Part shown: positions 9,647-48,992 of the stretch, piece by piece
Numbering within the stretch: position 1 is the stretch's first letter
Layout: every line of letters starts with the position of its first letter
Assembly (NCBI GenBank): GCA_043732705.1
Contig: JAYTHE010000029.1
Span: 3,251-67,250 of the forward strand
Direction: 5' to 3'
DNA: 64,000 nt
Source of the DNA: Candidatus Omnitrophota bacterium
Lineage (GTDB): Bacteria > Omnitrophota > Omnitrophia > Omnitrophales > Aquincolibacteriaceae
Position numbers and translations under genes: made by a program
Notes under the pieces: model-generated
Seen by the model: the letters and a program-made list of their open reading frames with translations, nothing else
What the model was told of the DNA's origin: nothing
The model's database searches: none

Positions 9647-9996
9647 TCAGCGATTTTTGTTATTGGGAAGGTGGTCCCAAGGAAACTCCGGCTCAACCAC
9701 CGGAGCATATTCTTTCGGGAAAGGAACAGGAAAGGTCACCATATCATAAAGACCGGCTAATGCCCGGCCGCCCATAAAAGCAACGCCGCGAATCGAACCA
9801 CTCATCCAGCTCGGAAGCATTTGGTCGGCGTTTTCTGATTTCTCTTTGGCAAGTTCAGTAGAAATTTCCATTGGACTAAGAGCAATATTTACAAAGCCGC
9901 GCTGTAGTTTACGCAAAGGGCCCGCAGATTCAATCGCAGCCGCAAAAGCATTCTGCGAAACCAGAATCAGAAGCGCGAGAAGTAAGAGTTTTTTCA
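9647..9996 (-). CDS. Small secreted hypothetical protein (about 116 aa, start probably GTG at 9996)
   Basis: Signal-peptide-like VKKLLLLALLILVSQNAFAA. The first 13 codons of the tracked ORF (MHISFFLSRASHG) are translation of the MITE-like element R2 and are excluded. Confidence 0.4.
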
Positions 9997-10086
9997 CCCC
10001 GTGAGAAGCTCTCGAAAGAAAAAAAGATATATGCATTATTATTTAAGTCCTAATTTCTGATTAAGATTCATCAAACAGGTTAAGCT
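9997..10086. repeat. MITE-like element, family R2, divergent copy (terminal inverted repeats CCCGTGAGAAGCT / AGCTTCTAACGGG)
   Basis: Termini and the A-rich internal region (AAAGAAAAAAAG) match copies at 17296..17397 and 47215..47323. It begins immediately after the GTG start of the 9647..9996 gene. Confidence 0.55.
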
Positions 10087-10142
10087 TCTAACGGGGTTCA
10101 TGACAGATAATCTAACAAACCCCGCTCCAACACTCAAGAAGC

Positions 10143-10179
10143 AAAAAAAAGACCGTGGAATTTCTTCCACGGTCTTTTT
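10143..10179. terminator. Bidirectional rho-independent terminator (AAAAAAAA-GACCGTGGAA-tttc-TTCCACGGTC-TTTTT), 3' of glnN
   Basis: A perfect 10-bp stem, 4-nt loop and flanking A- and T-tracts, 30 nt downstream of the glnN stop. Confidence 0.75.
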
Positions 10180-10211
10180 CGCCGGTTGCGCTTTAGCGCA
10201 GAGGCAAGATA

Positions 10212-16014: not shown

Positions 16015-17295
16015 TCACGGTTCGACGACTGCGAACTTCACTTCCGCTTCGCATACTAATTTGTCTCCGACATACGCTTTGCCTTCACACTGTCCGGCGC
16101 GGGCGCGCTTTTTAATGACATCCACTTCCATACGCAAAACATCGCCCGGTACAACCGGAGCGCGAAACTTTACTTTGTCCAAGCTCATAAAATAAGCAAT
16201 TTTCCCGCGATTTTCAGGTTCCGCGAGCATAATCACGCCCCCCACCTGCGCCATGGCTTCAACAATCAAAACCCCGGGCATGACGGGATGACCCGGGAAA
16301 TGGCCTTCAAAAAAATAATCATTTACGGTGACCTGTTTAATACCCGTCGCGCGCTTACCCTGCTCAAAATTTTCGATACGGTCCACAAAAAGAAAGGGGT
16401 AGCGATGCGGAATAATTTTTTTGATTTCTTCCACCGTCAGGGTTTTGGGTAAAACAGCCGGCAAACTATTTTCTATCATGCTCAATTTCCTCACGAGTTC
16501 AGTGTTAAGTGCGTGTCCGCTGCGTGTCGCAATCACATGCCCTTTGATAAATTTTCCGAGCAAGAAAAGATCTCCGAGCAAATCCATGATTTTATGCCGA
16601 CAAGCTTCATCCGAAAAGCGCAGTTCATTATCAATCGGCTGGTTGTTTTCAAAGACGAGCGTATTGCTGACATTCGCGCCCTTTCCAAAACCTTGTGAAA
16701 GCAAATATTCCGCTTCTTTTTTAAGACAAAAAGTTCTTGCCGGAGCAAGATCGCGTTCAAATGTTTCCGGCAAAATGGGCAGCATCAAAAACTGGTCTTT
16801 CAAATTCGGGTCAGAATAGGCCAATGTATAAGAAATGATAAATTGCGGGGAAGGCAAAACAATAATGGAATGTTCACCGCGATCCACAAAAACCGGCTGC
16901 TTCACTTCAAGATAAACACGGTTTGCAATTTGCTCAACCAACCCGGCCTGCGAAAGTGAGCGCGTAAACTCAAGCGCGCTGCCGTCCATCCCGGGCAATT
17001 CATCCCCGTTGACTTCGACAACGGCATTATCAATTCCCAGGCCATGAAAAGAGGCCATCAAATGTTCGATTGTTTTGATCACACCCGTTCCGACCGCTAG
17101 TGCCGTTTGACGCAATTCATCGGTGCGGACATTTTGGATCAATGCGCGGACTTTTAATTGCGGGTCAAGATCAACGCGGCAAAATCGAATACCCGTGTTT
17201 TCCTCCGCCGGCAAAACACGGACTTTTACGGATTGGCCCGTGTGCAATCCGGTGCTTTCAAACTCAACCGGTGTCCTAAGCGTTCTTTGCTTCAT
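16015..17295 (-). CDS. lpxC/fabZ: Bifunctional UDP-3-O-acyl-N-acetylglucosamine deacetylase / (3R)-hydroxyacyl-ACP dehydratase (LpxC-FabZ fusion)
   Basis: N-terminal LpxC fold (TLRTPVEFESTGLHTG...) is fused to a C-terminal FabZ hotdog (HFPGHPVMPGVLIVEAMAQ). Such fusions are known in several gram-negative phyla. Confidence 0.9.
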   Translation of the reverse strand: MKQRTLRTPVEFESTGLHTGQSVKVRVLPAEENTGIRFCRVDLDPQLKVRALIQNVRTDELRQTALAVGTGVIKTIEHLMASFHGLGIDNAVVEVNGDELPGMDGSALEFTRSLSQAGLVEQIANRVYLEVKQPVFVDRGEHSIIVLPSPQFIISYTLAYSDPNLKDQFLMLPILPETFERDLAPARTFCLKKEAEYLLSQGFGKGANVSNTLVFENNQPIDNELRFSDEACRHKIMDLLGDLFLLGKFIKGHVIATRSGHALNTELVRKLSMIENSLPAVLPKTLTVEEIKKIIPHRYPFLFVDRIENFEQGKRATGIKQVTVNDYFFEGHFPGHPVMPGVLIVEAMAQVGGVIMLAEPENRGKIAYFMSLDKVKFRAPVVPGDVLRMEVDVIKKRARAGQCEGKAYVGDKLVCEAEVKFAVVEP

Positions 17296-17397
17296 CCCGT
17301 TAGAAGCTCCTCAAATAAAAAGGGTTATCAAAATAAAACTCATCACTCAAAACACCGTTTAGCCCGAAAAACAAACGTCGGTTAAGCTTCTAACGGG
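17296..17397. repeat. MITE-like element, family R2 (102 bp; 13-bp perfect terminal inverted repeats CCCGTTAGAAGCT / AGCTTCTAACGGG)
   Basis: Perfect terminal inverted repeats read directly. The element begins at the nucleotide after the lpxC/fabZ ATG, and its internal region is about 70% identical to 47215..47323. Confidence 0.7.
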
Positions 17398-17415
17398 ATG
17401 AATCCTGTATAAAAA

Positions 17416-17916
17416 CTAGGCTTTTTTATATTTCTTCATCAGCTCTGCAAGAACAGCCTTGGTAATATTCAAAGAAGGATTGCGATAAAGCAAAACACGG
17501 TCATTTAAAATAAAGTCGTACCCTTTCGCTTTACCGAATTCCGCGATTGTCGCGTCAATATCTTGAAAGATTTCACGTACCACTTTTTCACGGCTCTCGC
17601 CGAGCTGGCGGCGAACTTCGCGGTCGAAATCTTCGAGCTGACGTTTCTTTTCGATCAATTGCTCTTGCTTTTGCTGCCGTGCATCTTTTGCTAAAAGGCT
17701 CATTTCATCTTCAAGCTGGCGTGCGGCTTTAACCAATGAGGCGCGTTCTTTTTCTTTTTGCTCACCTACGTTTTTAAGCGACAAGTCCTGATCTTTTGTT
17801 TTTTGATAATTATCAAAAACTTCAGCAACATCCACATATGCGATTCCGGCGGCAAAAACATTACCCGAAAGAAGCATGGTTGCGATTAAAAAAAGTAACC
17901 CCGTGTATTTTTTCAT
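17416..17916 (-). CDS. skp: Periplasmic chaperone Skp/OmpH
   Basis: Signal peptide followed by a coiled-coil-rich 166-aa protein, between bamA and lpxC as in canonical clusters. Confidence 0.8.
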   Translation of the reverse strand: MKKYTGLLFLIATMLLSGNVFAAGIAYVDVAEVFDNYQKTKDQDLSLKNVGEQKEKERASLVKAARQLEDEMSLLAKDARQQKQEQLIEKKRQLEDFDREVRRQLGESREKVVREIFQDIDATIAEFGKAKGYDFILNDRVLLYRNPSLNITKAVLAELMKKYKKA

Positions 17917-25947: not shown

Positions 25948-25962
25948 TTAGTTTGGGCTGTT

Positions 25963-28900
25963 TTAAGCTGAAATATCGATCAATTCGCCTGCTTTGAGCA
26001 AGGCTTGCACGACAACCATCACCGACCAACCACCGTTCGGACGGCGCTGAAGGCCTTGAATACGCTGGTTGAGATAATTTTGTGCGGCAACAATATCGCC
26101 TAGTGCGGCGGCTTGGCGCAAATCACGTATCATCGCCACCAAAACTTCATAGTCTTCTGCTGAAACCGCATTTAAAAGTTCCAAAACAATTTTGCCGCGA
26201 ATATTTTTTAAGATTGAATTCGAAGTTAAGAGCACAGCTACACCAGGTTTTGCAGCCCATGTCGCAACCTCGGTTTGATTCCCAACAATCACAAGCGCAC
26301 TCATCCAATTCTTCGCTTTGTTCTTCTGTTCAACGGATAACCCTGATTTCAAATTGGTCAATTTATTCCGAATGCGATCGCGCAAGCCGCCCTTCATGTC
26401 TAATAAAATCAAAAGCCCCGCTGTATCTTTCAAAACGGCATAGAGACCCTTGGCATCATTTGCTTCGAGCAATAAATCCACATACGCGGAATCCAGAATA
26501 AGCTGCGTATTATTTTGGACAAATTTTGATTGAGGCGCCGCCAATGTTTTGCTTGGTGCTTGCTGCGCAAGCACTCCAACTATCGGCTGAGGAATTTCAT
26601 CGGCAAAAGCTTTCGCACCTGTCCATGTCATAATCAAAGCAATTGCATCGCTTGTAGCAAGCTCCATCAAAAACTGCCGCGGCACAATACCGCGCATAAT
26701 CCAAACCAATGTTGGTAAAATCGCCACACGCGTCTGCAGAGGCTGTCTTGTAATTTGAGCTTCACCAAAAACCGGCCTTTGCTCTGACCGCCGAATAACC
26801 CGCGGCGCATAAATCAAACGCGCCTGATTCCCCAGTGATGGGCTCGGTGTCAGGTCTTTTGGAAGACTTCGCACTTCGGAGCGAGCTAAATAATAGTAAG
26901 CCACGGTTTCTAACCCTTTATTGCCAATTTGTTTTGCGAAAATTTTCCCTGAACGGCTCAACTCAGCAAAAAGAACTCTTGCTTCCGCAACTTTGCTATC
27001 GTTTTCAATGCCATATCTCCCCCCATCGATAGCTTTGGAAAGCAGCTGCACAGCCTGCTTCGCTTTAACAATGTTGGCGGGAGTTTGGTCTTTTAAGAAA
27101 ATGAGCGTCACAGCTGCTATAAAAACCAACACGCTTCCAAGCAACCCGGTAAGCGAGCTTGCTGAAGCCGAAATATTTGTCATGGCCGTCGCGAGGCTTA
27201 TCAACCATGCCCCCAAAGTCATGGTCACGCCCGCCGCCAAAACCGTAACAATCCATAATTTCAATGATTTTTGTTTTACCGCATCAGATTGCTGCCACGC
27301 CACAGCCTTACCTCCTAGCTGTCTTGAAAGATTGACAAACTGCTGCCAATTATTATCAACCCGCGCTTCGGAGCGAGCCAATCTCATCCAAATATAAGCT
27401 CCAGTCATTATTTCCGGTAAAGAGGCATCCGTAAACTCGTTTTGAAATTTTTGTTTGAGCAATTCCAAAAGTTTTCGTGTGTTTTCTAAATTAGCCTCAG
27501 TTTCGCCGTCATGATAATAAATTTTAAGTTCGATATTTTTTTCTTCTCCTGCCATTTCAACTTCAAGTTTTTTGAAATTTGGATTTCCACGAAAATAATT
27601 CTCAGCCGCTTGCCTTATAGCCTCTCGAAAAAGAAGGTCTTCCACACCACTATAAATGGCGGTATCGCTGTCAGGATTTGAGGCGGTTGACTCAGCGTCA
27701 TTTTTTCCAATTACAAACCACGCTTTTGCTTTGGACTCCACGGTGGACGATGAGCTTGAACCTTCAGGAAAAAATAGTTCCTGAAGCTCCGGAGAAGGCG
27801 CCTTGGGATCTAACAAAATTGTGGGTACCGCAATTTGTCCGAAAGCATGCGCCCCTTGGAGTGACTTTCGGAAATCTGCTAGCGAACCAGGAACTGTTTC
27901 ATCGGCATCGACATCGACCACTTTTTTACGGGCGAGAAGAACCGCTTTCCAATAGTCCGCGCTTTCTGAAAACTCCTCCGGCTGATAAAAAAGAACCCCC
28001 ACAATCTCGACTGCATCCGGAAAAACTGCGCCATCCACATTGGCAAGTATCTGTCTAATCGCCGCAGTTTTTTTCCTTTCAAACGGATTAGTAACAGGCG
28101 CATATCGAGTCAGTTGATTTTTGCCAACATTACCATTGCCCGGCTGGCGACCGGTAGACGACCCACGCACAGTTTGATTCTCGCCTCGCACAAGCCAAGC
28201 AGACGGAATCAGCCGAACAATCAACGTGGCTGCCAAAACACTGAGCAATAAATATAAAAATGGATTTGCATGTATCAAATTCCATAAGACTCCAAAATGA
28301 ATGCAAAAAAATGCGACAGGAATAATGGCTGCCGTGATCAATCCCCTTTTATAAATGACTCGGATTGCGTGGTTCTGCTGCGAAGGAGAAGCTAATTTAA
28401 ATAAATCCGGAAAAATAATTATCAGAAAGTCCCTCAGAAGAAAATAGAATGCCGCGGCAGTCCCAAATGCTATGCCCATATTAGAAAAGTATGAGTGCTG
28501 CGAGCCAACCATGCCGTTTCTTGATAAAATCGCACCCACAGCACTGCTCAAATCCATTGCCAGAATTAAAGTCACCACCCTCATGGTCCATGGCGCATGA
28601 CCTTGTCTGTGTTCGGAACGCTTAGGCGGAATGACGTGTCCGGACGAAGGCTGACCGTTACCAAAATGGGTTGGGAGAGGAGCGTTTTTTACCTGCGGAA
28701 TTGAAAACGGACTACGCATTTTGTTGCCATATCCATATGTCGTAAAAGTCATCGGCCTAGGTCCTGCGTGCTCCATACTACGACGCACCGCTTCTGTGAA
28801 TTGCGCGCAACTACCCAAGATTCCAGCGATTGAAACTGACAGCAACATCCTCACGAGTGAAGAAATTCCCAGCCGTTTATTGAACCGCATTTCGGAGCGC

Positions 28901-31900
28901 AATAGCTTTGGAACGAGCTCGCGCAACACAAACAATCGAAAAAGTGCCGGAGAGTTTTTACCTTCCCCGCGCATCACTTCTAAATCTGCGCTCGCATCAT
29001 CCGGCACAGAATAGCGCTGAACAAATTTTTTGAAAGCCGCACGGTCTTCATCTGAAATCTCGTGAGGGATAATTTTGCGGCCGTCTTTCTTTGATGGATC
29101 TGGTGCATTGACCAAAATAAATTCCAGAATTTTATCTTTTTCTTGAAAGGCGCGTATCCAAAGAACCCGGGGATCAAAAAACGACTTGATCATCTCAGCC
29201 TCAACGCGCGATGCATTTTGCAAACGCGCAACCGCTTGAGAAAAAATCGGGGCATGCGCGCCAAGATTGATAATATTCCACTCACTCCAAAAATGCGCGC
29301 GATACCTGTAAAACAGTTGACCACCCTCAACCACAATAATTTGATGATTTACTCCTGCTTCTACAGTCTGTTTTCCGCGCGATTCAGAGCGGGCCTTCGC
29401 TTCATACAAAGAAAAATAAACTCTGCCGCTATCGCCCGGCTCGGTTTTTTGATCCCAGCTGATTGTGACCTGGGATGCTGCCCGGGTACGCGCGACACGC
29501 AGATTTTGCAAACTAAAATTCACGCTTCTTGCGCCGGATTCGATTTTGACCAGCTCCATAACGTCGGGATTTCCGCGAGCGGGACGAAAATCCAAAAACA
29601 TATCGGTGCCCGATAAAATATTTTCAACCGCTGCGGTGGCCTTTGCACGGGCCGTGGAAGAAGGCAGACTTCTGATTTGGCCTATAAGATGCGCCTTTAA
29701 GTTTGTTCTTACGTCGAGATGAGTAACCAGGTTCAACTTCCATTTTTTCTGCAATTTCTCTCTGGAAACTAAAAGCATCGTTGCGCCGTAACCTCTTACT
29801 TCAGAGCGAACGGGAATCGAGAATTTGATTTTACTGCCCGAAACTTCAACTTTAACAGGCTTGGTTTGGCGTTGAGCAATGCGGTCGGTTGGGCGCTGTC
29901 TTGGCGAGCCTTCCGGTGAAAGAACGTAGACCTCTTCATTCCGCAATTGTTCGTTCACGACCACACCCCAATTACCGGTGGGGGCATAGGTCTGCGTAAG
30001 AGCTTCGCGAAAAGCGCTTAATTCCCCGGTTTGATTTACGATAAAGATCAAGCGGCGGGTTTTCAAAAGGCCCTTCATCAAATTACGAACATACCCCAAA
30101 TCGTCAGGCAAAATTATCCAGGCCTGTAAAGCTTGAATCAACTCAGCCTGTTTCTTCAAAAGCGCAGGGTCGGCCTCATTGACATTTCGCGCACCACCAG
30201 CTAAAAGATCGATAAGGAAAATGCGCTCACCGCGATGTTTATAAGTACCTTGCCCAGCAGCCTCAACATGCTGAAAAAATTCGTCGGTCACTTCACTTAC
30301 GAGCTTATCGTCTAAATTGAATTCTATTTCGCGTGTTTCGGAGCGGGCTTTGATTTTTGAAGTTGCGGCTTCAAGCAAGCGTGCTTTACGCTGAGCAAGG
30401 TCTGCATCCGAAATCCGGGCTGTAGCTCCCCCATTCGCGCCCCACTGCGATTCATAATTCAAATCAATATTCCGGTGTGCGTTTAAAAAGCCGCCGCTGG
30501 GGCCAAAATATTTAACCCCCCTGAATTCAACGGGGCCTCCTTTTCCGGAAAAAACTTCTAATTGAATCAAGCTCTCATCTCCATTTGCGCCACCGTAAAA
30601 TTTCCATAGCTTGTATTTTGTGCCAGGCACATTTTCGACTTTGAATCTCGTTGCATTTTGAACGAGAGCCAGAACTTCTTCGTAGCTAATTGATTCTCGT
30701 GATTCAGAGCGACTTTTTGTCTTCTCGCCACGTTTTTTAAAAGTTGCCATGTTGTGATTACGGCGCGCTGCGTGAAGAAAGCGCCTATTTCTTTCATCCC
30801 GCCTTTCATCATGCGCCTCTTGCTGTTGAATCGCGTGACTCCTCGCCGCTGGATCCCAAGCTACGCGCATCGTAAGTGGATTCGGTTCGCCGTCCGCGCG
30901 CTGACGCGCCTCGGAACGGCGCGTAAACTCAATGGTCCATATAAATCTTCCATTATTTAAACGAGAGCCTTCACTCTTCAATTGATAATCATATTGAGGA
31001 TATTTCCATGTTAAAAGGCGTCCAAAATTTTCCGCTAAATCCTTTCCAAAATTTCCTTCCGGAACAGAAACCGTCATCTTAAAAGAAACAGGGTTAGCAC
31101 CTGAAAAAGAAATTACCGGGTTGTTGTCATGCATCGCCAGCCCGCGTTCTAAATAAATAAACTCTTTGGGTGCACTACCTTGTGTCCACAGAGGTGTGCC
31201 CTGCATTTGCCCAAGCCCTTTTGAAGTGAGCGGCTCACTTTGAATTGCGCTTAAATGTTCCTGAACGGCATTCATCGCTCGCACACCCAAGGTTTGCAGT
31301 TGAGCATCCGTGGCGCCGCTTGTTTCTTCAGCCTTAAAATCCAAACCAAAAGATGTCTTGGCCGTAATCAAAGCTTTGCTGCGGTTTTTTGCAACACTGA
31401 TTTCAAAAACCAGGCCAGGCAAGACTTTGACAACCAAAGTGGGTAGAGAATTTTTTATTTCTTTTGAACTCCATATAATGCGCCCATGGTTCGGAAGAAT
31501 TTTATCCATTTGTGTCAAAAGGCTTCGAAATGCCGGTCTAAAATTTTCTGCAACGTCCGCGACGGCTCCGCTGATCGCGCCATCTGAAAGGCGATGTTCG
31601 GAGCGGGCATCCGGAACTTCAATAATAATTTCAACGTGGTCTCCGGTTAAAGATTCAACACGAGCCGAAAATCCCGGCACAGTAAGCGGCGTCAGGTCGA
31701 GAGATGCACCATATACGGCCGATTGAATATCACTATTTTCACCGTTCAAACCATAGCTTACGGCTAAATGCTTTGTCGGTCCGTCATGATCATGCCCGTC
31801 AACATTATCAAAAATAACCACGCGGCCATTCAAAATTCCCAAACGGAATTCATGGTCAGAGAGAATCGTTGCCATGGGCGATGCTTCATCGCTTAACTGA

Positions 31901-34900
31901 TCCAGGTCGGCAAGCAACCCCGGCTCATTTCTCGTGCCGCGGACTGCATCAAAATTGTCATCGTTTGCATCAACTAAAAACATTTCAATGGGCGCGCCCT
32001 TTTTTAAAGCAATCGGTTTTGTCCGTTTTGCCGTTAATACTATTTCACGAACTTCAGAGCGAACAGCACGCGCGCTTTCGAAAGCAGCCTGAATTGCTTC
32101 TTGTGATTTCACACCGCGAATGGCCTCGCCGCTTAGAAGTAGTTGTATTTTTTGCTCAAGCGTTGCCCAATTAAAAATTTGGAGAAGCTTTAAAGTGTTC
32201 TTAATCCGGCCGACAAGGTTCGCTTTATTTCCTGATTCAATGTGTGCAATAAAAGCCGCCCATTGTGGGCTTATTTTTAGAAGCCCACGCTTTTCTAAAA
32301 TTTCCCGCATCAGCGCAATGCTTTTTTCTCCAACTCGATCGGTTGTCAAATCACCAGCTTTTAATTTTGTCAGCAGTTGCCCCATATCCGTGATTGGCGA
32401 TGCGCCATCCGACAATTGATTCTTAGCGAACCCGGCAAGCCTGCGGTCTATTCGAGCCATTTCAAAAAATAAATCATTCAGCTCATAGGCCAATCCCTCT
32501 TTGCGTCTTTTTTGAAAAACAAAAAATGCTTTAGCCCAATTCAACCCTGTTTTTCGAATGTGCTGTATGGTTTGACTGGAATTCTTCCCTAGCTTTCCGC
32601 GCAATTGACTCACGCTAAGGAATTCTTCACCGCTCAAAGGAAACTGTCCTTTTAATACCGCGATTTCATCTTTTGTCAGCGGTGATTCTGTTGAATTAAA
32701 AAGCTGTTCGCGGAATTCCTGGTTACTAAGAAATGCCGGTCTTCGCGGCGTTTGCCGGAATTCCGAGCGGACGGTACCCGCAACAGAAGGGGCCGATTCG
32801 GTGCGTAAAATAAGGTGCCCAGCTTTGAGGTCAATTAAACCTTGATAAGCGTTGCTGAGAAACAAGTCCTGCCTTGTGCCGTCGCTTCGAATCATCCAGG
32901 GTACTCCGCCATGGATTTCATCATAATTCAAAGGGCGAAGCGGGTTTAATCCACCATCGATCAGTTGAGCTCCGATAACTTGGCGATCTTTAACCCAAAA
33001 CACAATGTCTTGTCTATTCTGGCCGCGAAACGCAGCAAGATTCAGCCCTTCAAACATTGTTCCAAACTTAAAATTACTAACAGTAACAATTTGAATAACT
33101 TTTCCGTCTAAATGACTCGCACGCGTTTGATCCATGATAACTTTTTCTATCTTCGGATCCCAATACCACGAGCGAAATGCAGGCAACCAAATAGGCGAAA
33201 ACATTAACAGAGCAAATATGCTAGCAATGCTTGCGGGAATAAGAACAGCAATAACCCGTATGATTAAACTAAAAGATGTTCGACCCAAAAATCTCAACCT
33301 TTTCGAAAAATAAGAATAGTTAGCATCATTCTTTAATAGGGTCACAATATGGATTACGCTTTCCAAACTCTTTAAGGCTTCCGGCTGATCCTGCGCATCT
33401 GTCTTAAGAAAAAATTTAATCTGCCATTTGAGCACTGTTCCGCCAAGAGTCCACTCATCTACCAATTCATCAAATTTCGCCGGCATCGTACTTAAAAAAT
33501 TTCGCACATCCGCAAGCATTTCCGGTTGTTTCGAAGCATCAAAACCTTTGTTTTTCAGAAGGGACTGAAACCCAATTGCTTCGTTCTCAATACCATCAAG
33601 CACATTTAAAAATTTGGAAGTTCTCTTGCCCATTTGAAGAAAACGTGATTCTGAACGCGCTAAATTGCCAAACCAATTTTTTTCCTCGATTGCGGCGTCT
33701 TTCGCATCGGCGCTGCCATGAAAACCATTCGGGCCATAACCCACCTTACCGGAATAAGGAATGCCCTCTTTTTGTCCAAGCATACCGCGCAGTGTATCTT
33801 TGCCGGCTTTGGCGGGATTCGTATCGCCCAAGCGAATTCTAAAATCAGCGATGGCTTTTTGTTTTGTCCCGGCGGGAGCTAAAAGCGGCGCGATTTCTAA
33901 AACAATAATCGTTTTTTGTTCAGCCCAGGTTTGACGCATTTGGGGATAATGGCCGTTGATAACAACAACATCTTCTTCGCCGCCACCGCGTTTTTTAAGA
34001 TGCATTTTAGCGACATAAGCGCCTTCTCCGATTTTGTTGCGGCGATCAACAGTCCAAACCGGCTGGCCAGCATCGTCTTTTTTAGGAGGCGCAAGACTAT
34101 CCCATGCGCCCGCGAGTTCATCCGCCGTAACATTGTATTTTTCTAAAACTACGTCAGCGGGAAGGATAATAGCCGCGGCACCATAAATATGTTCACTCGT
34201 AGCTTTCAAGTTGGCATCTTGTGAACTAAAGCCTTTTGAAGCATATCCCGCCATTAAACCATAGTGCTGATCCACTTTTTTAGAACGCGCGGCAAATTCA
34301 CCCGACATCGCGACACCGCGCACAATATAAAAACCATCATCGTTTAAAATTTTCAGAGACTTTTCAAAAAATTCCGGGCTTTGCGGGCCGCCAAATTGTT
34401 TGAAAATGAAAACTGCTGCTTCATCCAATTTTAACCGGCTTCGCGGCACAGTCTCCCTGTCCACATAAATCGGAACTGGCCCTCCCTTCACGTCTAGAGC
34501 TGAAAGTTTTGCTAACTCTTCAGCGAGTTTCCGCAATTCGGAACGCACCGGCTTAAACACAAATTGCCAGCCTAGCGGAGCTTGTCCCGGGTGCCTGGAA
34601 TGAGCTGTCTCAACTTCGGTCCCTAAAAATTCCCGGACCAAGGCTTCTTGTTCATCCGAAAAAGTGATTCTTATTTTTGCTAAGTCCGGGTTATAAGAAA
34701 AAGCAACGAGCGGGTTTTGATCTGCGCGTTCATATCCGGGAATATTTCTGCTTCTCAAATGAAAAGCAAACGGCATGCTGGCATTCTCACGATTCCAGGA
34801 CATCCAAACCATTTCACCCTTGGCGTCTTTCATTTCAAGCGCCCAGCCATTGCCATCCGGATAAACGGAAAGCATCGCGTAAGTTTGTCCGAGCGAAAGT

Positions 34901-37900
34901 GTTCTCTGGGCGGATACTGCTCCTGATGTGTATTTCCAAGAATCTAAATTCCCGCGCTGCCCCTGAATCAATTTATATAAATCATCCATGGTCATGCGCA
35001 TTTCGGAGCGAGCGGAATAAAGCAATTTTGGATAATGGTCTTCGATTGTCTGCTTTAACTTTTCCTGAAAGATCTTGTCAGCGGGTTGCGATTCCAAAAT
35101 CAGCCAGCGCTCCTCGGTCTTCGAGTCAGCCGGACTTTCAATCACCACTGTTAAGCCGGCCCGGTAAGCGATAACTGAAAGAATATCAAAAATTTCCTTT
35201 GATCTCCCTGTTAACTCCACGTTGCGGGCCGCATCAATCGAGACTTCCGAAACATTCAAAGGAATTCGAATTTCATTGCCTTTAAAATCAATGACCAGCT
35301 GATTCATTCGCAATGTGGTAATAAAATTTTGAACGCTTGAATCCTGCTGATTAGAAGCGTTATTCCAAGGCCACCCTTGGCCATAGCCGAATCGCATTTC
35401 AGAGCGGGCGGCTGAGTCAAGCAAAACAGCAGGCTGGGGCGCTGGTTGCGTGTTATTTTTATTTTGGGACTGCTCCTCGCTCATCTGCCGCCTGAATTCC
35501 GCTTCCTCTTCTTTAGTAAGCCGCCTTACAGCTCCACTTGTATCCGGCATATTATCCGCCGCGGGGTTTGGATTTCTGAGTGGTTCCAAAAGTAAATATC
35601 CGGCATAAAGGACACCCACCGCCGCAAGACTAATCAACGCGGCCGGCACCTTGCGTATTTCAGACCGGGCAGTCGGTTCAAGAAATAAAAGCTGGGCATG
35701 CAGGCCCAAGTGATGCATATTCGCATCGTGAGCAAAGTGATCCGTAACTGGAATGCCCGCGCGAAAATCGTACACCAAGTCTTGCGCACTAGGAGCTTTG
35801 TCGTAAAAGTGAACTTTTTCTTCGCCCGGAATGGAATAGTCCCCCACCGAATAAAACACATCATCGCGTGCGGCCAATAACGAACTCATATTTTGAACAT
35901 TACGCGCCCACACTTTATTAGCCTGTTGATCCCAAGGTTCGATTCCCAAATAAAAGAAAGGTGTTAGAATGCGGCCGGTTTTAGGATGGCTGCGGGAAAA
36001 CATAACCGTGTCATAATGATCTGTGCGATGCAAACGCAACATTGAACCTTCTCCGAAAAGAAGTTGATTCACAGGATCTTTTAAATAATTTTCAAGCATT
36101 GAAAATTGCGGAAGATTCCAGCTTCTGAATGCTTCCAACGTTTCTGGCGCCAGAAAAACAGCTAAACCCGCCAAGCCAAAAACTTTTTCTTCGCCGTATT
36201 TTTTCGCGGCTTCTTCGCGCGACAATTGACTGATTTCAGCCACCCATGTCGCAAGTTTTTGCGGCAAAGGTTCCCCCTGCTGAATGGGCTTGCGAATTTC
36301 CTTCACCATTCCGACCAAGGGCTCGAGATTGTTCTGTCGATTGAGAATCGCGTTAAACTCGCGCATATATTGCGCGCCCGGATTAAGCGCATTCACAACA
36401 CGGCTTAATTTAACGGCGACTTCCAAATAGGAGCCAAAGTGTGCCGGTTTTTCATGAAATGCGTTGACCTGGTTCAGAAGAACTTCCAGATAAGAACCGG
36501 GCTTATCGTCTTTGGGAATTAAAATGTTACCGGAGCCCGCGACTTTCGGATTAAGAACAATTCCGATTTTCTGAATATTGCCTTCCGTCCAAGCAGGCCC
36601 CATGATGAGCGCGCCATTCACCGCGCCGTTCATTTCAGTAATTTCCGAAGCGCCGGTTTTATAATTAGAATCCGCCACAATAATATGTGAAATGCCTAAA
36701 CCGTCGACTTGTTCTTCCAGGCCGAATCCGGTCCGAACAACTACGCGTCCAAATTTTCTTCCTTGCTCTCTTTCTTCTTTTTCAGCGAGCGTATTGATTT
36801 CAGCCGCCGCTTTCTGCAATTCTTCAAAAACTTTATTCGGTATGGTTTGAACGTTGCCTTCATAAAGTACATTCGCGCCGCTTAAAATCAGTTGGCGAAT
36901 GTTATAAATCGTCCAGGCGCGCTCACGGCCCGATTTCTCATGCACAAACCGTCCTAGGTAAGAAATTACCGGTAAATCAGGATTGAGCTCAGCGTTCCAT
37001 ATCCCTTTATATTTAATATTTAATTCCCGGATACCTTCTTTTTTTGCCGCAATAATCTGCTCACCGGTGGGACGCCAGACATCCACTTCCCCCGGATGAG
37101 GATAAAGCTTCAAAAGCATTTTTCTAAAAAAAGCCGCCGATCGATCCAAGTCATCCCCGTTAGGAACGGAGACCATTCGCGCTTGCGGATCCCTGCGCGA
37201 AACTTCATGCACGTGCGGCGCGGCCACGCCATTTCTTCCGTGAGAAGCGCGCACGCCCTGCGAAGTAGGGTCCATTGAGCCATTGCTGTCGACCGATTCC
37301 ACCGGGCCCCGATTTAAAAAAGTATGCGTGGTAAACCAGACAATTGCTTTTCTTAAAATGTCGGTGGCTTTATCCATTTTTCTTTTTTCGGGAGGCAAAT
37401 AACCGGTCTGTCCGTCATTGCCCCAAATCACCGGCGACTTATAATCGTTTGCGTTTTCACCTTGTTTGGTTTTTTCTAAAATCCGGATCAATTCCAACGA
37501 CGCTTTGGAGAAAAATTCACTAAATTCTTTCCAGGTTGGCAAAGGAAAAGGCGGGTCTTGAATGTCAGGCGAATATTTGTAAAGTGCTGCGGTGTACTTA
37601 CCGCCGTCAAGCAGGTAAACGGGAATGCCGTCTTCGGTTCTCCCTTCTCTGACAATGACTTTCACTTTTGTTCCAAGCACAACCACTTCGAATTCATACA
37701 CCGCTTTTAAATTTTTAATCGGCGTTTCAAGTTTTTCATAATCGATGGGGGTCGTGGATTTGTCCGCGTGAATCTTATGATGATAAAAGCCTTCGATTGT
37801 TACGATTTTTCCACGTTTTGCCAAAAGCTTGTGAATAGCGCGTGTGTGGTATTGCCCGACACGGCCTAAGCCGCCCGCCAGCAGCCATGTCTCGGGCGAA

Positions 37901-40900
37901 ACATAATAAATGCGGCGTCCAATAAGATTCGGCGTGTGGAACTGCATCCATTGATCAATGTAGGCTTCCCATTCCTCCGGAGCTAATAATTCTTCGCCCA
38001 GCATTAAGAAAATTGCGTCCGTCACGCGTAAAGATCCAAATTTTTCAGGGGCAGAGATTAATTGCCGGAGCAATTTCTTCTGATCGTCTTTTTTCATCAT
38101 CGCGACCGCGCGCATGACCGGCCAACGAGATTCAAGCGGATATTTCGGCCAATCATCAGCCGCTTTGTCATAAGCCGCTAAAATTGCAGGCAGGTTCTCT
38201 TTGTTGTTTAAGGCTTCGAGCAATTGTGCTTGAATATAAAATGCCGCGTCCGAACTAAGCGCGGCGGCATCCATATTTTCAAGCAAACCCGTTCGCTGAA
38301 TTTCCGCCCACAAGGCAGTTAATTGATCATTGCTCGCGCCAAGGTTCATATCAATCAAACGCGCGGACATGCGGGGTTTAAGATCAGCTTCCGCGATGGA
38401 GTCACCGTCTTTCTTGGCATCCAGATAAACCCAGACCATGGTATTCATTCTTTGCCAATCCGCCGTGGGAGCATCAAGTCCCATCCAAAGCGATTTGTTC
38501 ATATCCCGTAATTCGGAGCGTTGCGCGGACTCGTTTTGCTTCTCTGCAAGCACGCTTTGAATAAACATCGCCATACCAATCGGGCCAATATTCTTTTGGC
38601 TTAATTTTTGATGCTCTCCTGGCCCCCAGCTCTTTTTCGCAAGATCCTTCTCCGTTAAAATCGTGATTTTTATTTTATCTTGCAGATCGTATTTTCTGAG
38701 CGCATCGAAAATTACTTGTTTAAATACTTCCTTGCGATCTTCACGGACAATTCCACCGCCAAGCACAATCTCATCGGGACTACCTTCGCCCGTCCCTTGC
38801 GTCATAAAATAATGGATAGCCAAATTGCTGGCGTATTTATCAGCAAAGTTACGCAAAACTCTGTTGGCAATTTGGCTTTTTCTGTTTCTAAGCAAAGCGG
38901 ACAGATTATCCGCCAGCGGTTGAACTGGCAGTGCTTCTGCCAAGGGTCTAAATTCGCCTTCCCTCAAATCATTCCAGTGATTCCTGTTATTAGTGGCCTG
39001 AGTAATCGCGGAATGGAGCATTCCAGGAATGCCGGTGAAAGCTTCTGAGTCATAAATCGCGTCGCCCGGTCGGCCAAAATTGAAAATACAATGTCCCACC
39101 TCCGTTGGCGCATTCATCGGAATACCGTTAACTAACTCTGCGTTACCAAAACCCGTACCAAGCCAATCCACGCGAACGTGGCCCTTTAATAATTCAGGTT
39201 TAATTGCAGCAAGGGCCCAAGCCACCCCCGAACCAACACCGTCCATGTCATTGCGAATCAATACTTCTCCGTGATTTAACCCTAGTTTTTCCTTTACCCG
39301 CACTGGTAAAATTAGTCCAAAATGCTGAACTTGCCTCATGCTCCATCGTTTTTCAGTAGGAATCTGCCCTAAAGTTTCCATTTGATTTTCGGTTAAGTTC
39401 TTGGCGCCGGGGGTGTCAAGACCAACGCCGTCAAAATTAATCCCTGCCCCCAATACTGCTTTTCTAATTTCGTCTATGTGGTCTGCGATACGCATAGCAA
39501 ACTGTTCGGGCGATTCCGCTATAAATTCGCCTCCCACAGTTTTTAGAACAGTCGGAAGCGTTTGCAAGTCTTCTGGAATCTCTATCATTTTTCCGTTACT
39601 TATCACCGCAAACTTTGCCGAACCACCGCCTAAATCCATCCCGAGAAAATTTCCTTTTACATCCGCTTGTAAAGCAATGCCCAGATCCAACTTCTTTTTC
39701 TCTTTTTCTTGAGGCGTCAGGTCCGATATTTTTTTAAAAGATATTTTTTCACCACCGCCATTTGCGTAATTCTGAACTCCAAACGCCGTTACCGTGTCCT
39801 GCGATAATTCCGTGCTTTGATTCACTCTTGATAAATCGCCCTGAGTTAGCAAATCGGCGATTCTACTTTCTTTTACCAAATCAGGCTCACCTTCAACTCC
39901 GACCGCAATAAATGAAGTGCCATATCGAATCGAAAGGTTGTAGGCCCACGCGGCTATATAACGATAAGCTGATTCTTGAAACGCGGGATCTTGAAGCAAC
40001 GACCGCGACATCGGAATTTGAAGTTTGACACCGCGCGCGATTTGAATCGTCACATTCATTTTGTCAGCCGCCTCTGCAGGCCGATACTGATTAAGCAATC
40101 CAAACCAAGTTAATGCGTCCGTGCTAACTTTTAAAATCGGCTTGATTTCTTCTAACCGCATTTCGGAGCGCAGAGCTGAGCGGATATTCACCGTTACAGT
40201 ATTGGCGTTTGTTGAAAAATCCCAGGTAATCGCATTGCGTCCCTTTTGCCTTGCGCGGGAAAACTCCCACTTGACTGCTTTCGCAAGAGACCGTCTAGAC
40301 TCTGCCATCACTTTACCCTCTAGCAAAAACAGATTGATTTGAATTCCGATTTCACCATTTACGTAAAAAGCTATTGTTTTTATTTCTGAAGTAGCCGTGG
40401 ATTCAATTTTTCGCAGAATTTCACGCAATAGACGCTCTTCCTGCCGAAAAATCTCTTGCCTTGCAGACACCCTGCCTCTAACGTAGAAGAAAAGCGCCCC
40501 GAGCAATCCGGCGGCCATCCATTTCCAATCATGCCGCAGCCAGGCAAAAATTCCCGTCACAGCCAAAAGAGCCGGATAGAAAAACTTATTCGCTCTTATT
40601 TTTGCTACGGCAGCAGAAAATGTTTTCTTCCATTCCACGCGCATTTCGGAACGCTGAGAACGGCTTTTCGCTTTAACCGAGGACGAACTTCTTTGAACGA
40701 AGCGTCGCACCGGAGATGCTTCTTTACGCGATGAATTAAAAGCGCCGCTGCGCGCAGTAAGTACAAGAGTTTGCAATTCAAAACGATGCATCGCCTCGCC
40801 TCCAACGGGGTCGGCGCCATAAGGAGACTCAAGGTTTCGATTCAGAGTGTTAGGAATAGTATGCGCCATCGTTTGCGCGATACCCGGCATGCGGTACGCG

Positions 40901-42540: not shown

Positions 42541-42590
42541 GAAACCTTTAAAAGAAAATGTTTTGAAAAAGACTAGGAAAAGGTTCCAAA

Positions 42591-42620
42591 AATATACTCG
42601 TTGAAAGGACTTAAGACAAG
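42591..42620 (-). promoter_or_regulatory. Candidate sigma-70-type promoter for the giant gene (minus strand: -35 TTGTCT, 17 nt, -10 TATATT, about 40 nt upstream of the ATG)
   Basis: Read from the reverse complement of 42591..42620 in an AT-rich 5' region. Confidence 0.3.
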
Positions 42621-42774
42621 AGTGAAAATGAAAAAAAATTTAGAATTAAAACTTAAATCTAGCGGATAAAAAAACTAAGCTTCTATTTGAAAAATAAATC
42701 TCTATACATAAGAATAGAGAGAGATCACTATCAATTTATAGCGCAGAAAAGCACTCCAAATAGAATTGTTCTTA

Positions 42775-46278: not shown

Positions 46279-46305
46279 CCTTGTGCACATCGGATGTGTA
46301 CAAGG
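46279..46305. repeat. 27-bp palindrome CCTTGTGCACATCGGATGTGTACAAGG, family R4, copy 2
   Basis: 26/27 identical to 25921..25947. It lies between the two ABC permease genes. Confidence 0.8.
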
Positions 46306-47214
46306 TTAGGTGTAATGAATATTTTTACCGAAAAATTTCCACTTCAAAAAAGTAATCAGAAAAATAACCAGAAACAGCACCCACGCGATCGCCGCCGCAT
46401 ACCCCATGTGATACCAAACGAAAGCGTTGTTATAGAGATAATAAATAAGCGTTGTGGTAGATCCGTTCGGACCGCCGCCCGTCATCATATAAGCTTGATC
46501 GAAGCCGGCTTGAAATCCGCCGATTAAACTCATAATTCCGATAAAAAAAGTAGTCGGTGAAATTTGCGGCCAAGTTACGGCCCAAAATTTTTGAACGGAC
46601 GTGGCGCCATCAACCTCTGCGGCATCATACAAGTCGCGCGGAACACCCTGCAAAGCGGCGAGATACAAAATCATATTTTGCCCGCCGACACTTTGCCATA
46701 CGCTCATCAAAATAAGCGCGGGCTTAGCCCAAGTTTCATCCGTCAGCCAATTCGGCCCTTGTAGTTTCAACCCCAGCATATGTCCCAGCCGCGCGATCAT
46801 GGTGTTGAACGCACCAAATTCAGGGTTATACATCAAACGCCAAAGCATGAAGATCGCGACACCCGCGCAAATGGTCGGCAAATAATAAATCGTCCGGAAA
46901 ATAACCATGCCTTTTAATTTTTGGTTAAGCGCAAGCGCGAGAAGAAGCGAGCCGGCCATGGAAATCGGAATGGCGCCCATTAAATAAACGGTATTCAAAC
47001 AATATTGCCAAAAACGCTTATCCTGAAAGAGCTCGATGAAGTTTCGGAACCCCACTAACTTCGGCGCTGAAAAAAGGCTCCAATCCGTAAAACTCAAAAA
47101 AAGCGAGGCAACGACCGGAATGGAAGTGAAGATAAGGAAGCCGATAAGGTTCGGCGCAAGAAACGCGTACGCCGCAACCATTTCCTTGGTTTTATCTTTC
47201 ATGAAGCGCTTCAT
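46306..47214 (-). CDS. Carbohydrate ABC transporter permease (MalF/UgpA-like)
   Basis: Six-TM permease with an EAA loop (DLYDAAEVDGATSVQKFWAV). Start set at MKRFMKDKTKEM. The upstream 27 codons of the tracked ORF are translation of MITE R2 and are excluded. Confidence 0.8.
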   Translation of the reverse strand: MKRFMKDKTKEMVAAYAFLAPNLIGFLIFTSIPVVASLFLSFTDWSLFSAPKLVGFRNFIELFQDKRFWQYCLNTVYLMGAIPISMAGSLLLALALNQKLKGMVIFRTIYYLPTICAGVAIFMLWRLMYNPEFGAFNTMIARLGHMLGLKLQGPNWLTDETWAKPALILMSVWQSVGGQNMILYLAALQGVPRDLYDAAEVDGATSVQKFWAVTWPQISPTTFFIGIMSLIGGFQAGFDQAYMMTGGGPNGSTTTLIYYLYNNAFVWYHMGYAAAIAWVLFLVIFLITFLKWKFFGKNIHYT

Positions 47215-47323
47215 CCCGTTAGAAACTCCCAAAATAAAAAAATGACCGAAATTCAATATACTTGCCGCCCAACACATGCATACACGCACACGCAAAGTTG
47301 TTTAAGTTTCTAACGGGATTCAA
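47215..47323. repeat. MITE-like element, family R2 (terminal inverted repeats CCCGTTAGAAACT / AGTTTCTAACGGG)
   Basis: Terminal inverted repeats and the internal AAAATAAAAAA region match 17296..17397. It begins at the nucleotide after the permease ATG. Confidence 0.7.
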
Positions 47324-48582
47324 GCTGATTTCTCCAAGCGAGACACATGGGTCACAACAGGCTGTGTTTTTCCGCTGATCACCTCTTCGGTAATAAATAC
47401 CTCCGAAGCATCTTGCGTTGCGGGAATATCATACATCAAATCAAGCAAAGCCGCCTCGAGAATAGACCGTAAAGCGCGAGCTCCCGTCGACTTCTTAAGC
47501 GCGCGACGGGCCACTTCGCGTAACGCCCCGTCGGTAAAATGCAAATCTACATTTTCCATCTTAAACAATTTTTGATATTGCTTCACAATCGCGTTTTTAG
47601 GCTCCGTTAAAACGCGCACCAAATCATCTTCGGTCAGTTTATGCAAACCCGAAACTACCGGAAAACGGCCGATAAACTCGGGAATCAGCCCAAACTTCAC
47701 CAAGTCTTCAGGCTCAAGCCGGTCAATCAATTGGCCCAAATCCTTTTCTTTTTTAAGCGAAGAGTTTTGCGCGCCAAAACCCATTGTCTTGCTTGCGATG
47801 CGCCGCTCAATCAAGTCTTCGATTCCGCCAAACATTCCGCCGCAAATGAAAAGAATATTGCGCGTGTTGACCGTAATATATTCCTGATGCGGATGCTTGC
47901 GCCCGCCTTGCGGGGGAACATTCGCGGTCGTACCTTCTAAAATCTTCAGCAGCGCTTGTTGAACGCCTTCGCCCGACACATCGCGGGTAATCGACATATT
48001 TTCGGATTTCTTTGCGATCTTATCAATTTCATCGATATAAACAATTCCGATTTCCGCACGCTTCACATCAAAATTCGCGGACTGCAAAAGCCGGAGTAAA
48101 ATATTTTCCACGTCTTCTCCGACATAGCCAGCTTCGGTCAATGAGGTCGCGTCCGCGATCGCGAAAGGCACGTCTAAAATTTTAGCCAAAGTCCTCGCGA
48201 AAAGTGTTTTTCCCGAGCCCGTCGGCCCGATAAGCAGCACATTGCTTTTTTCAATCTCAATCTCATCTTCATTCTTGGAGGTAATACGCTTGTAATGATT
48301 ATGAACACTGACCGCGAGACGCTTTTTGACAAGGCTTTGTCCCACGACATGCTGATCGAGTTTGAGTTTAATATCATGCGGTTTCGGAACTTTAAAATCT
48401 TCGATTTTAAAAGTTTTGGCATCGGCAGCGGGGGCGGGCTGCTTCAGAAAAGCATCGTAACAAACACGGACACAAACTTCGCAGATGAAAGATTGATTGC
48501 CGGCGAAAAGTTTTTTAACTTCCGCTTTCTTGCGTCCGCAAAATGAACAACTTTCGCCCGTATTGTCTTTTTGAAAGGTCAT
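47320..48582 (-). CDS. clpX: ATP-dependent Clp protease ATP-binding subunit ClpX
   Basis: N-terminal C4 zinc finger (CSFCGRK ... CEVCV) and AAA+ Walker A GPTGSGKT; 420 aa. Confidence 0.9.
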
Positions 48583-48921: not shown

Positions 48922-48992
48922 TTGCCCGACCAGGGTTCGAACCTGGAACCTTGCCTCCAAAGGGCAGTGTGATACCATTTCACCATCGGGCA
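48922..48992 (-). tRNA. tRNA-Gln (anticodon UUG)
   Basis: Manual fold of the reverse complement. Acceptor stem TGCCCGA/TCGGGCA (U1:A72 as in bacterial tRNA-Gln). D-arm GTGA-AATGGTA-TCAC. Anticodon loop CTTTGGA (UUG). T-arm CCAGG-TTCGAAC-CCTGG. Discriminator A. CCA is not encoded. One A:C mismatch in the anticodon stem. Confidence 0.75.

Follow-up and report, generated by a model that had tools for sequence, protein, structure and literature searches.

The window, by which we mean the whole 64-kb stretch of DNA analysed here, holds three short elements with inverted terminal repeats, referred to below as copies A, B and C, each of which runs up to the start codon of a gene. All of the flanking genes are encoded on the minus strand, and what abuts the ATG of lpxC/fabZ, the ATG of a sugar ABC permease gene and the GTG of a gene for a small secreted protein is accordingly the reverse-complement end of the element. 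The initial annotation of this DNA correctly placed an element exactly at each of these three starts; the forward-strand layout that it implied proved to be mistaken. The features on which the following paragraphs draw are these:

9647-9997, minus strand: gene for a small signal-peptide (secreted) protein, its start abutting copy C
9993-9996: copy C gene-side target-site duplication, TTCA on the plus strand, recognised by comparison with the empty site
9997-10096, minus strand: copy C at full length, with its terminal C..G pair, placed upstream of the gene for the small secreted protein
10097-10100: copy C distal target-site duplication, TTCA on the plus strand; on the minus strand, the former ATGAA
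10212-12326, minus strand: type III glutamine synthetase gene (glnA), upstream of copy C, with a terminator at 10145-10180
16015-17295, minus strand: lpxC/fabZ, encoding a 426-aa product with LpxC and FabA Pfam domains
17291-17294: copy A gene-side flank, TTCA on the plus strand and TGAA on the minus strand, read from the sequence
17293-17295, minus strand: ATG of lpxC/fabZ, its A (17295) being the terminal base of the element and its TG coming from the flanking TGAA
17295-17398, minus strand: copy A at full length, with its terminal T..A pair, read from the sequence, between skp and lpxC/fabZ
17307-17312, minus strand: GAGGAG, Shine-Dalgarno-like, its last AG in the 3' arm and 11 nt to the ATG
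17399-17402: copy A skp-side flank, TGAA on the plus strand, read from the sequence
17416-17916, minus strand: skp (OmpH domain), the upstream neighbour of copy A in a bamA-skp-lpxC context
46306-47214, minus strand: sugar ABC permease gene, its start abutting copy B
47210-47213: copy B gene-side direct repeat, TTCA on the plus strand; on the minus strand, the TGAA of ATGAAG at the permease start
47214-47318, minus strand: copy B at full length, with its terminal T..A pair, forming the entire ClpX-permease spacer
47226-47230, minus strand: GGGAG, Shine-Dalgarno-like, with 11 nt between it and the permease ATG
47319-47322: copy B ClpX-side direct repeat, TTCA on the plus strand, holding the ClpX stop TGA (47320-47322, minus strand)
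47320-48582, minus strand: clpX, the upstream neighbour of copy B

At up to one mismatch, the arm AGCTTCTAACGGG matches six times in the 64-kb window, and the six matches make up three inverted pairs (17296-17308/17385-17397, 47215-47227/47305-47317 and 9998-10010/10083-10095) whose members are separated by 72-77 nt. Dinucleotide shuffles give a chance expectation of 0.04 such matches, and none of 100 shuffles reached six. The arms common to the three copies are CCCGTTAGAAGCT/AGCTTCTAACGGG. Their description as perfect 13-bp repeats holds for copy A (13/13 complementary) and, in matched form, for copy B, in which the variant GAAACT/AGTTTC occurs once in each arm, but not for copy C, which has a single arm mismatch in 9998-10010. 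The annotated extents were likewise right for copy A and wrong for the other two: copy B ends at 47317/47318 rather than 47323, and copy C spans 9997/9998 to 10095/10096 rather than 9997-10086. Between the arms the copies barely align, the conserved pieces of the interior being TTAAC beside the 5' arm and TTTTTTTATTTnGGGAG beside the 3' arm (minus strand). Read on that strand, each element ends in CTAACGGG and passes directly into ATG, ATG or GTG, and the artificial N-terminal extensions that had been predicted do occur: a 329-aa ORF starting with TTG and a 129-aa ORF starting with ATG begin inside elements. What the initial annotation had overlooked is that the first base of each start codon, A or G, is contributed by the end of the element.

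Several other features of the surroundings are recorded here in their own right. A tRNA gene (60.6 bits, 48922-48992, minus strand) lies just upstream of clpX, and the middle of the window is occupied by the gene of a giant protein, a single ORF of about 5,559 codons (25962-42639, minus strand). The permease-permease junction of the window carries a 27-nt hairpin, CCTTGTACACATCCGATGTGCACAAGG, at 46279-46305. At L122 3909-4067 (L numbers denote loci of our set) the two permease genes are separated by another kind of insertion, about 140 bp long and with inverted ends of its own (CCATGTTGAAAAAAA...TTTTTTTGAACATGG), which is absent from the relative L121 (3909-3927).

Homologues of its LpxC/FabZ assign the window to Candidatus Omnitrophota. 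Evidence that the window copies were inserted comes from relatives with 89-90% identical proteins, in which all three sites are empty. At copy A, the skp-lpxC spacer measures 120 nt in the window, as against 14 nt (L026-L028) or 48 nt (L029, L030) in relatives whose LpxC/FabZ is 90% identical to that of the window, and these relatives carry no element copy across about 20 kb of shared gene order. What is left of the native spacer on the skp side, GGATTCA, matches GGAATCA of L027. At copy B, the ClpX-permease spacer of relatives with an 89% identical permease is 26 nt long and has no element. Copy C gives the simplest case: the empty site of L027 reads TAGATTATGACTC-ATGAAA-AAACTT and the filled site of the window TAGATTATCTGTC-A[TGAA]C-element-G[TGAA]A-AAACTC, that is, a clean 4-bp TGAA duplication around a C...G-ended element with no additional mutation. 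The insertion turned the ATG start of this gene into GTG (9995-9997), made of the element's G and the TG of the duplication, while the former ATGAA now opens a 20-codon upstream ORF on the minus strand, MNPVRSLTCLMNLNQKLGLK.

Beside this site we note a -10-like signal, TAGATT / TAAATT, 7 nt before the ATG of the small secreted protein gene (window 10101-10115, minus strand), which is conserved in relatives (L027 near 17300, L029 near 13710). No Shine-Dalgarno sequence accompanies it, and the native mRNA may therefore be leaderless. In the window, the signal now lies upstream of copy C and would drive the 20-codon ORF.

Copies A and B do not match simple single-site insertion. Around copy A a few native bases are missing and the flanks, TTCA and TGAA, are inverted rather than direct, which lengthens its hairpin to 18 bp. 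Copy B has TGAA on both sides (minus strand), the distal one with the clpX stop, and the 26-nt native spacer has been lost. Tandem copies are common in the family, which leads us to suspect recombination between neighbouring insertions; that two neighbouring copies recombined at each of these sites is a guess. Inverted flanks of the same kind as in copy A (TTCA/TGAA) are seen at L077 (7430-7522), where the copy appears to replace a whole divergent intergenic region and GTG-started ORFs of 111 and 133 aa read outward from both element ends.

A paired-arm pattern search recovered 24 loci in metagenome-assembled genomes (MAGs), labelled as Saccharibacteria, Parcubacteria, other Patescibacteria, Omnitrophota and Cloacimonadota, and a further 90 in unlabelled metagenome contigs; the viral contigs searched held no copy. 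With identical sequences removed and more divergent copies from the same loci included, the family set comprises 110 non-identical copies. The elements range from 25 to 240 bp with a mode near 100, most being 80-119 bp and the smallest, which we call mini-copies, 25-30 bp. Their interiors are not conserved as protein, and the ORFs that run through them are extensions of neighbouring genes. The pair immediately outside CCCG...CGGG is C..G in 91/110 and T..A in 15/110 copies (106/110 together) and so belongs to the repeat, making the terminal inverted repeat 14 bp long (Y-CCCGTTAGAAGCT). Its core, CCCGTTAGAAG, is near-invariant across copies; beyond it the stem varies yet still pairs (GCT/AGC, ACT/AGT, GTCT/AGAC, GTTTGC/GCAAAC and, once, TTACAAG/CTTGTAA).

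The 4-nt flanks are identical, as expected of a target-site duplication, in 75/110 copies, a perfect duplication being missing in the other 35/110. TGAA/TTCA (19), TCAA/TTGA (19) and TAAA/TTTA (17) make up most of these duplications, with few others and a single TTAA (1/75), and when oriented they give an asymmetric target logo, R-T-V-A-A. A 6-bp duplication model was rejected, as its outer positions agree with the terminal pair of the element and not with each other. Mini-copies are nested within the arms of other copies (L004 3135-3211, L012 5426-5634), tandem copies have one duplication in common (L066, L048, L086), and near-identical elements occupy unrelated sites, each with a different duplication. 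Inverted repeats, duplications, empty sites, and nested, tandem and relocated copies are the defining properties of a MITE. They bear out the initial annotation, which had called the elements MITE-like; with copies in at least three phyla, the outcome that was to have counted against that description, a local duplication and nothing elsewhere, did not arise.

The elements are genuinely associated with start codons, and the cause is structural and simple. In 22/110 copies the terminal purine of the element plus TG is the exact start of an ORF of 80 aa or more, the genes abutted in this way including those for SSB, DNA ligase and a glycosyltransferase-like protein. When the element and one duplication are removed, 15 of 23 such junctions show a native ATG or GTG in the reconstructed empty site, and most of the starts restored in this manner have only a short open stretch upstream of them, with no in-frame start in it. 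Among the 18 copies with a TGAA duplication that could be classified, 8 sit on native starts, 3 inside long ORFs and 7 elsewhere. In the same emptied loci there are 6268 TGAA sites, of which 157 (2.5%) are start-like and 4453 (∼71%) fall within ORFs. Enrichment at starts is thus evident both against all TGAA sites (odds ratio 31, p = 7e-9) and against those outside ORFs (odds ratio 12, p = 1e-5), and the positional bias anticipated from the three window copies extends to the family. It is important to note that gene calls here are crude ORF heuristics on short contigs, so that these effect sizes are rough, while their direction is clear. Copies with T..A ends, which rebuild ATG rather than GTG, are themselves enriched at starts (9/15 vs 13/91, p = 3e-4); both copy A and copy B of the window end in T..A. 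Where an upstream stop codon overlaps the start, it is retained in one copy of the duplication (L003, L007, L024 and window copy B).

Other insertions show how varied the occupied sites can be. At four TAAA sites the insertion separates a GAGG Shine-Dalgarno sequence from the ATG, and one copy (L013) lies in a -35-like TTGACA. At L018 (7043-7344) the element is a single 96-nt insertion in an internal loop just before the B12-box strand of a cobalamin riboswitch match (RF00174), which scores 29 bits against a gathering score of 31.5. Copies also lie in N-terminal tails, in frame in gyrB of L004 and in a prepilin leader (L022), and with an element-supplied ATG in gyrB of L005. The L004 gyrB frame after the element (3538 onward) stays open for 1201 codons, far beyond the usual length of GyrB, and may belong to a fusion or an intein-containing gene.

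We consider it very probable that copies A-C are non-autonomous cut-and-paste MITE copies, and that target preference and selection together concentrate the survivors of such insertions on start codons. A complete copy would consist of the 14-bp repeat Y-CCCGTTAGAAGCT...AGCTTCTAACGGG-R, a non-coding and fast-evolving interior of about 75 nt, and a 4-bp target-site duplication. The transposase would prefer R-T-V-A-A, TGAA being among its three commonest targets, and insertion into A|TGAA would be tolerated, the duplication leaving a gene-side TGAA and an intact reading frame. The terminal purine of the element, joined to TG, would then rebuild ATG or GTG, and a TGA stop of the upstream gene that overlaps the start would be preserved by the other TGAA copy. 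On this mechanism, the insertions at lpxC/fabZ, the permease gene and the small secreted protein gene would postdate the split from the relatives with about 90% identical proteins. The native leader would have been displaced by about 100 nt, or, between ClpX and the permease, wholly replaced.

What the element may contribute to the genes it abuts is a separate question. The gene-proximal end of the window subfamily reads UUUUUAUUU-GAGGAG / GGGAG / GAGAG, with a U-rich tract and 11 nt to the start, copy C carrying its GAGAG at the position equivalent to the GAGGAG and GGGAG of copies A and B. L067, a metagenome copy of the same type, carries GAGGAG and adjoins a 416-aa ORF, again in the sense of the gene. 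The start-abutting copies of this subfamily, L067 included, lie in the gene's sense in 4/4 cases (read by eye), and those of another subfamily, marked by TATA(A/T)AA about 10 nt inside the arm, do so in 5/5. Symmetric ends should make insertion blind to orientation, and this bias in sense therefore suggests that only copies with a useful signal survive at starts. Moreover, copy B is the whole clpX-permease spacer, so that the start signal must lie within the element or come from coupling to clpX. A ribosome-binding site donated by the window subfamily is thus plausible from the sequence, and under the preferred mechanism the U-rich tract and the GGAG 11 nt before the start would supply translation start signals. 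However, a Shine-Dalgarno-like or GGAG-type motif precedes only about one-third of the 38 long ORFs of the window (with crude start choice), and the GGAG may for this reason be irrelevant. The further suggestion that the element is a mobile promoter was not upheld, a sigma-70 promoter scan giving no promoter-like match inside copies A-C.

The initial annotation had also proposed a regulatory hairpin. The predicted RNA folds of the window copies close on the arms, at -45, -39 and -30 kcal/mol with z-scores of -4.6, -2.8 and -2.5. If both arms are transcribed, the predicted fold buries the region from the GGAG to the start, and in copy A the AUG also. Such a 13-bp stem over the start region should hinder initiation, which counts against our explanation. 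On the mechanism favoured here, a stem of 13-18 bp would, if both arms are transcribed, mask the start region until opened by ribosomes that complete the translation of skp or clpX immediately upstream. The extended stem follows the skp stop at a distance of 13 nt, and the stem of copy B follows the clpX stop at 2 nt, so that terminating ribosomes could open them; we propose that this would amount to classical translational coupling. A regulatory role for the hairpins of the window copies is, for now, a matter of fold prediction only.

Could the hairpin itself be the reason that the element is kept? On such a reading the copies would be a host cis-regulatory RNA, a translational operator or RNase III site, maintained by selection and either never mobile or a co-opted MITE. 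The arms are sequence-identical across phyla while the interiors are scrambled, the inner extension of the stem and the terminal pair covary, and the predicted folds close on the arms, all of which speaks for this reading. It also draws on two sets of conserved sites. In L004 and L005, whose GyrB N-terminal 377 aa are 83% identical and whose third codon positions are 52% identical, the gyrB site is filled at the same nucleotide, with all 26 arm bases identical and an interior that cannot be aligned; and in L032, L053 and L096 the element is 96-99% identical, as against 70-92% for the 90-nt flanks. This conservation is not predicted by plain decay of a selfish element, but an active element refilling hot-spot sites could produce it, and we are left with either refilled hot spots or selection, in place, on the arms or on whole elements. 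Mobility, in contrast, is directly apparent from the duplications, the empty sites of close relatives, the nested and tandem copies, and the near-identical copies at unrelated sites. It is, furthermore, the sequence of the arms that is kept, beyond mere pairing, which points to a protein reading DNA ends; no Rfam family matches; and copies in coding regions, after stop codons and in a riboswitch are a poor fit to any one role. For these reasons we regard a host regulatory hairpin as quite improbable. In the window, no Rfam family reached its gathering threshold at the elements, and searches of 13 related loci with E-value limits of 1 or 0.1 gave no match to them either.

Two further observations on structure may be recorded here. 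Short conserved segments, including the DnaA-box-like CTATCCACA, stand beside the copies at L032 600-760, L053 2630-2790 and L096 (reverse strand); this block, at which Rfam gave nothing, may represent an origin of replication or a region that controls dnaA. A large subfamily of 35 copies has the interior AAGGCGAAGCCG(N)C-loop-G(N')C (for example L007 3756-3865, L048 91-199 and L066 1159-1267), and the N/N' pair of this hairpin covaries (CG 13, AU 12, UA 2). When 29 copies of the GGCGAAGCC subfamily were folded to a consensus, nothing beyond the arm stem and two tiny hairpins emerged; one of these hairpins has a covarying pair, but as a model of a structured RNA the result is not convincing.

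Other kinds of mobile or excisable element fare worse. GCGAAGC forms a very stable DNA mini-hairpin, and its presence within the interior motif GGCGAAGCC, together with the short, hairpin-forming, high-copy and extragenic character of the element, recalls the REP/REPIN palindromes that are moved as single-stranded DNA by a RAYT (IS200/IS605-like HUH) enzyme, or some other hairpin-recognising system such as that of integron attC sites. REPINs and the relatives of IS200/IS605 have no target-site duplication, however, and one is present here in 75/110 copies; a GTAG-type head is absent, and we noticed no RAYT-like ORF among the neighbours examined. For attC, the inverse core and core sites (RYYYAAC...GTTRRRY) and a cassette context are lacking, the flanks are direct repeats, and the window copies lie between housekeeping genes (bamA-skp-lpxC, clpX-permease, glnA-small gene). 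We think it highly improbable that any system of this kind is at work. Scarcely credible, in our judgement, is an intron-like or translational-bypass element that would be cut out of the mRNA, or skipped within it, with the matching flanks as take-off and landing sites, and so be harmless at or in genes. Identical short flanks and a stem-loop do recall the bypass in phage T4 gene 60, and there are copies inside gyrB and a prepilin gene. Yet copies are strongly depleted within ORFs (3/18 vs ∼71% of TGAA sites), and no ribozyme or intron family matches. The intragenic copies, moreover, are N-terminal and either in frame without stops (L004, L022) or furnished with their own ATG (L005), so that they are tolerated as translated sequence rather than removed. 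On duplications, context and ORF depletion we reject the attC, REPIN and bypass or intron readings; an inverton was also considered and rejected.

A more speculative reading, which we think unlikely, takes the ends to be selected at the sites they occupy, in addition to being required for transposition, and the element to be a portable translation-start module for streamlined genomes. The terminal purine would rebuild the start and the stem would loop the insert out of the mRNA, allowing start codons, SD-AUG spacers, a riboswitch and N-terminal tails to be colonised. The change from C..G to T..A ends would be a co-evolved one, returning GTG to ATG while keeping the stem, and the driving force would be a piggyBac/IS1380-like enzyme shared horizontally among Patescibacteria, Omnitrophota and Cloacimonadota.

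Returning to the non-autonomous cut-and-paste MITE, which we prefer, we looked for its transposase. In about 0.9 Mb of fetched DNA there were no arm pairs 0.3-4 kb apart that enclose a transposase-like ORF, and inspection by eye of the ORFs between solitary arms found pilins, DNA ligase and membrane proteins but no transposase. A phmmer search of 1263 ORFs of at least 120 codons from the same ∼0.9 Mb, with an ISEcp1 sequence as query, gave no match. The ends themselves offer a lead. Members of the IS1380 family duplicate 4-5 bp of target and have inverted repeats some 15 bp long, with CC at the ends. The piggyBac elements, for which IS1380 transposases serve as the prokaryotic outgroup, make a 4-bp duplication of TTAA type, with TAAA and TCAA variants reported, and their inverted repeats begin with CCC (PMC10813416). 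Our family resembles both in the 4-bp length of its duplication and in its ends, (C/T)CCCG, and differs from piggyBac in that its target is asymmetric, mainly TGAA, TCAA and TAAA, with TTAA in 1/75. By analogy, a piggyBac/IS1380 derivation is only a lead.

As a kind, the family is already known: hairpin MITEs that carry expression signals and lie 5' of genes or in frame. The Correia element (NEMIS/CREE), ERIC, RUP, Nezha and Chunjie are bacterial MITEs (reviewed in PMC3184786), and like them the present elements are non-coding, about 100 bp long and of high copy number, with terminal inverted repeats, a short target-site duplication, a fold into a long RNA hairpin when co-transcribed, a frequent position 5' of genes and possible expression signals (PMC3184786). 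Unlike Correia- or ERIC-type elements, they have unrelated ends, Y-CCCGTTAGAAGCT, and a 4-bp duplication at R-T-V-A-A, their arms are identical across MAGs labelled Patescibacteria, Omnitrophota and Cloacimonadota, and their terminal purine rebuilds the start codon. Correia elements duplicate TA. Neisseria REP2 and Borrelia IR-A lie directly upstream of genes, which they provide with a promoter, a ribosome-binding site and even the ATG (PMC3184786), and by analogy the window subfamily may be functionally like them. REP2 and IR-A, however, lack terminal inverted repeats and are not known as transposon-like, whereas in our family the ATG combines a base of the element with bases of the target, and the promoter scan detected none in the window copies. 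The palindromic elements of Rickettsia (RPE) are small, mobile and tolerated in frame inside protein-coding genes (PMC3184786), just as the reading frames of L004 (gyrB) and L022 (prepilin leader) continue through the element; unlike RPE, the intragenic copies of our family are a minority and are confined to N-terminal tails, its main niche being the start codon and leader. Thus what is unusual in this family is its phylogenetic breadth and its manner of rebuilding start codons. A literature search did not find the arm sequence, nor any description of MITEs in the Candidate Phyla Radiation or Patescibacteria, and the family is apparently undescribed so far.

The immediate consequence is for annotation. 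Through the element, genes acquire false N-terminal extensions, native leaders are displaced and ATG becomes GTG, and where the repeat is left unmasked, gene callers will mis-start genes in Omnitrophota and Patescibacteria genomes. Should its ends prove to be IS1380/piggyBac-like with a defined 5-nt target, the system would be of possible practical interest. The family also marks horizontal exchange between uncultivated groups. Finally, that identical 13-nt arms occur in very small streamlined genomes, with survival mainly on starts, makes these insertions a natural experiment on how much disruption of the initiation region is tolerated.
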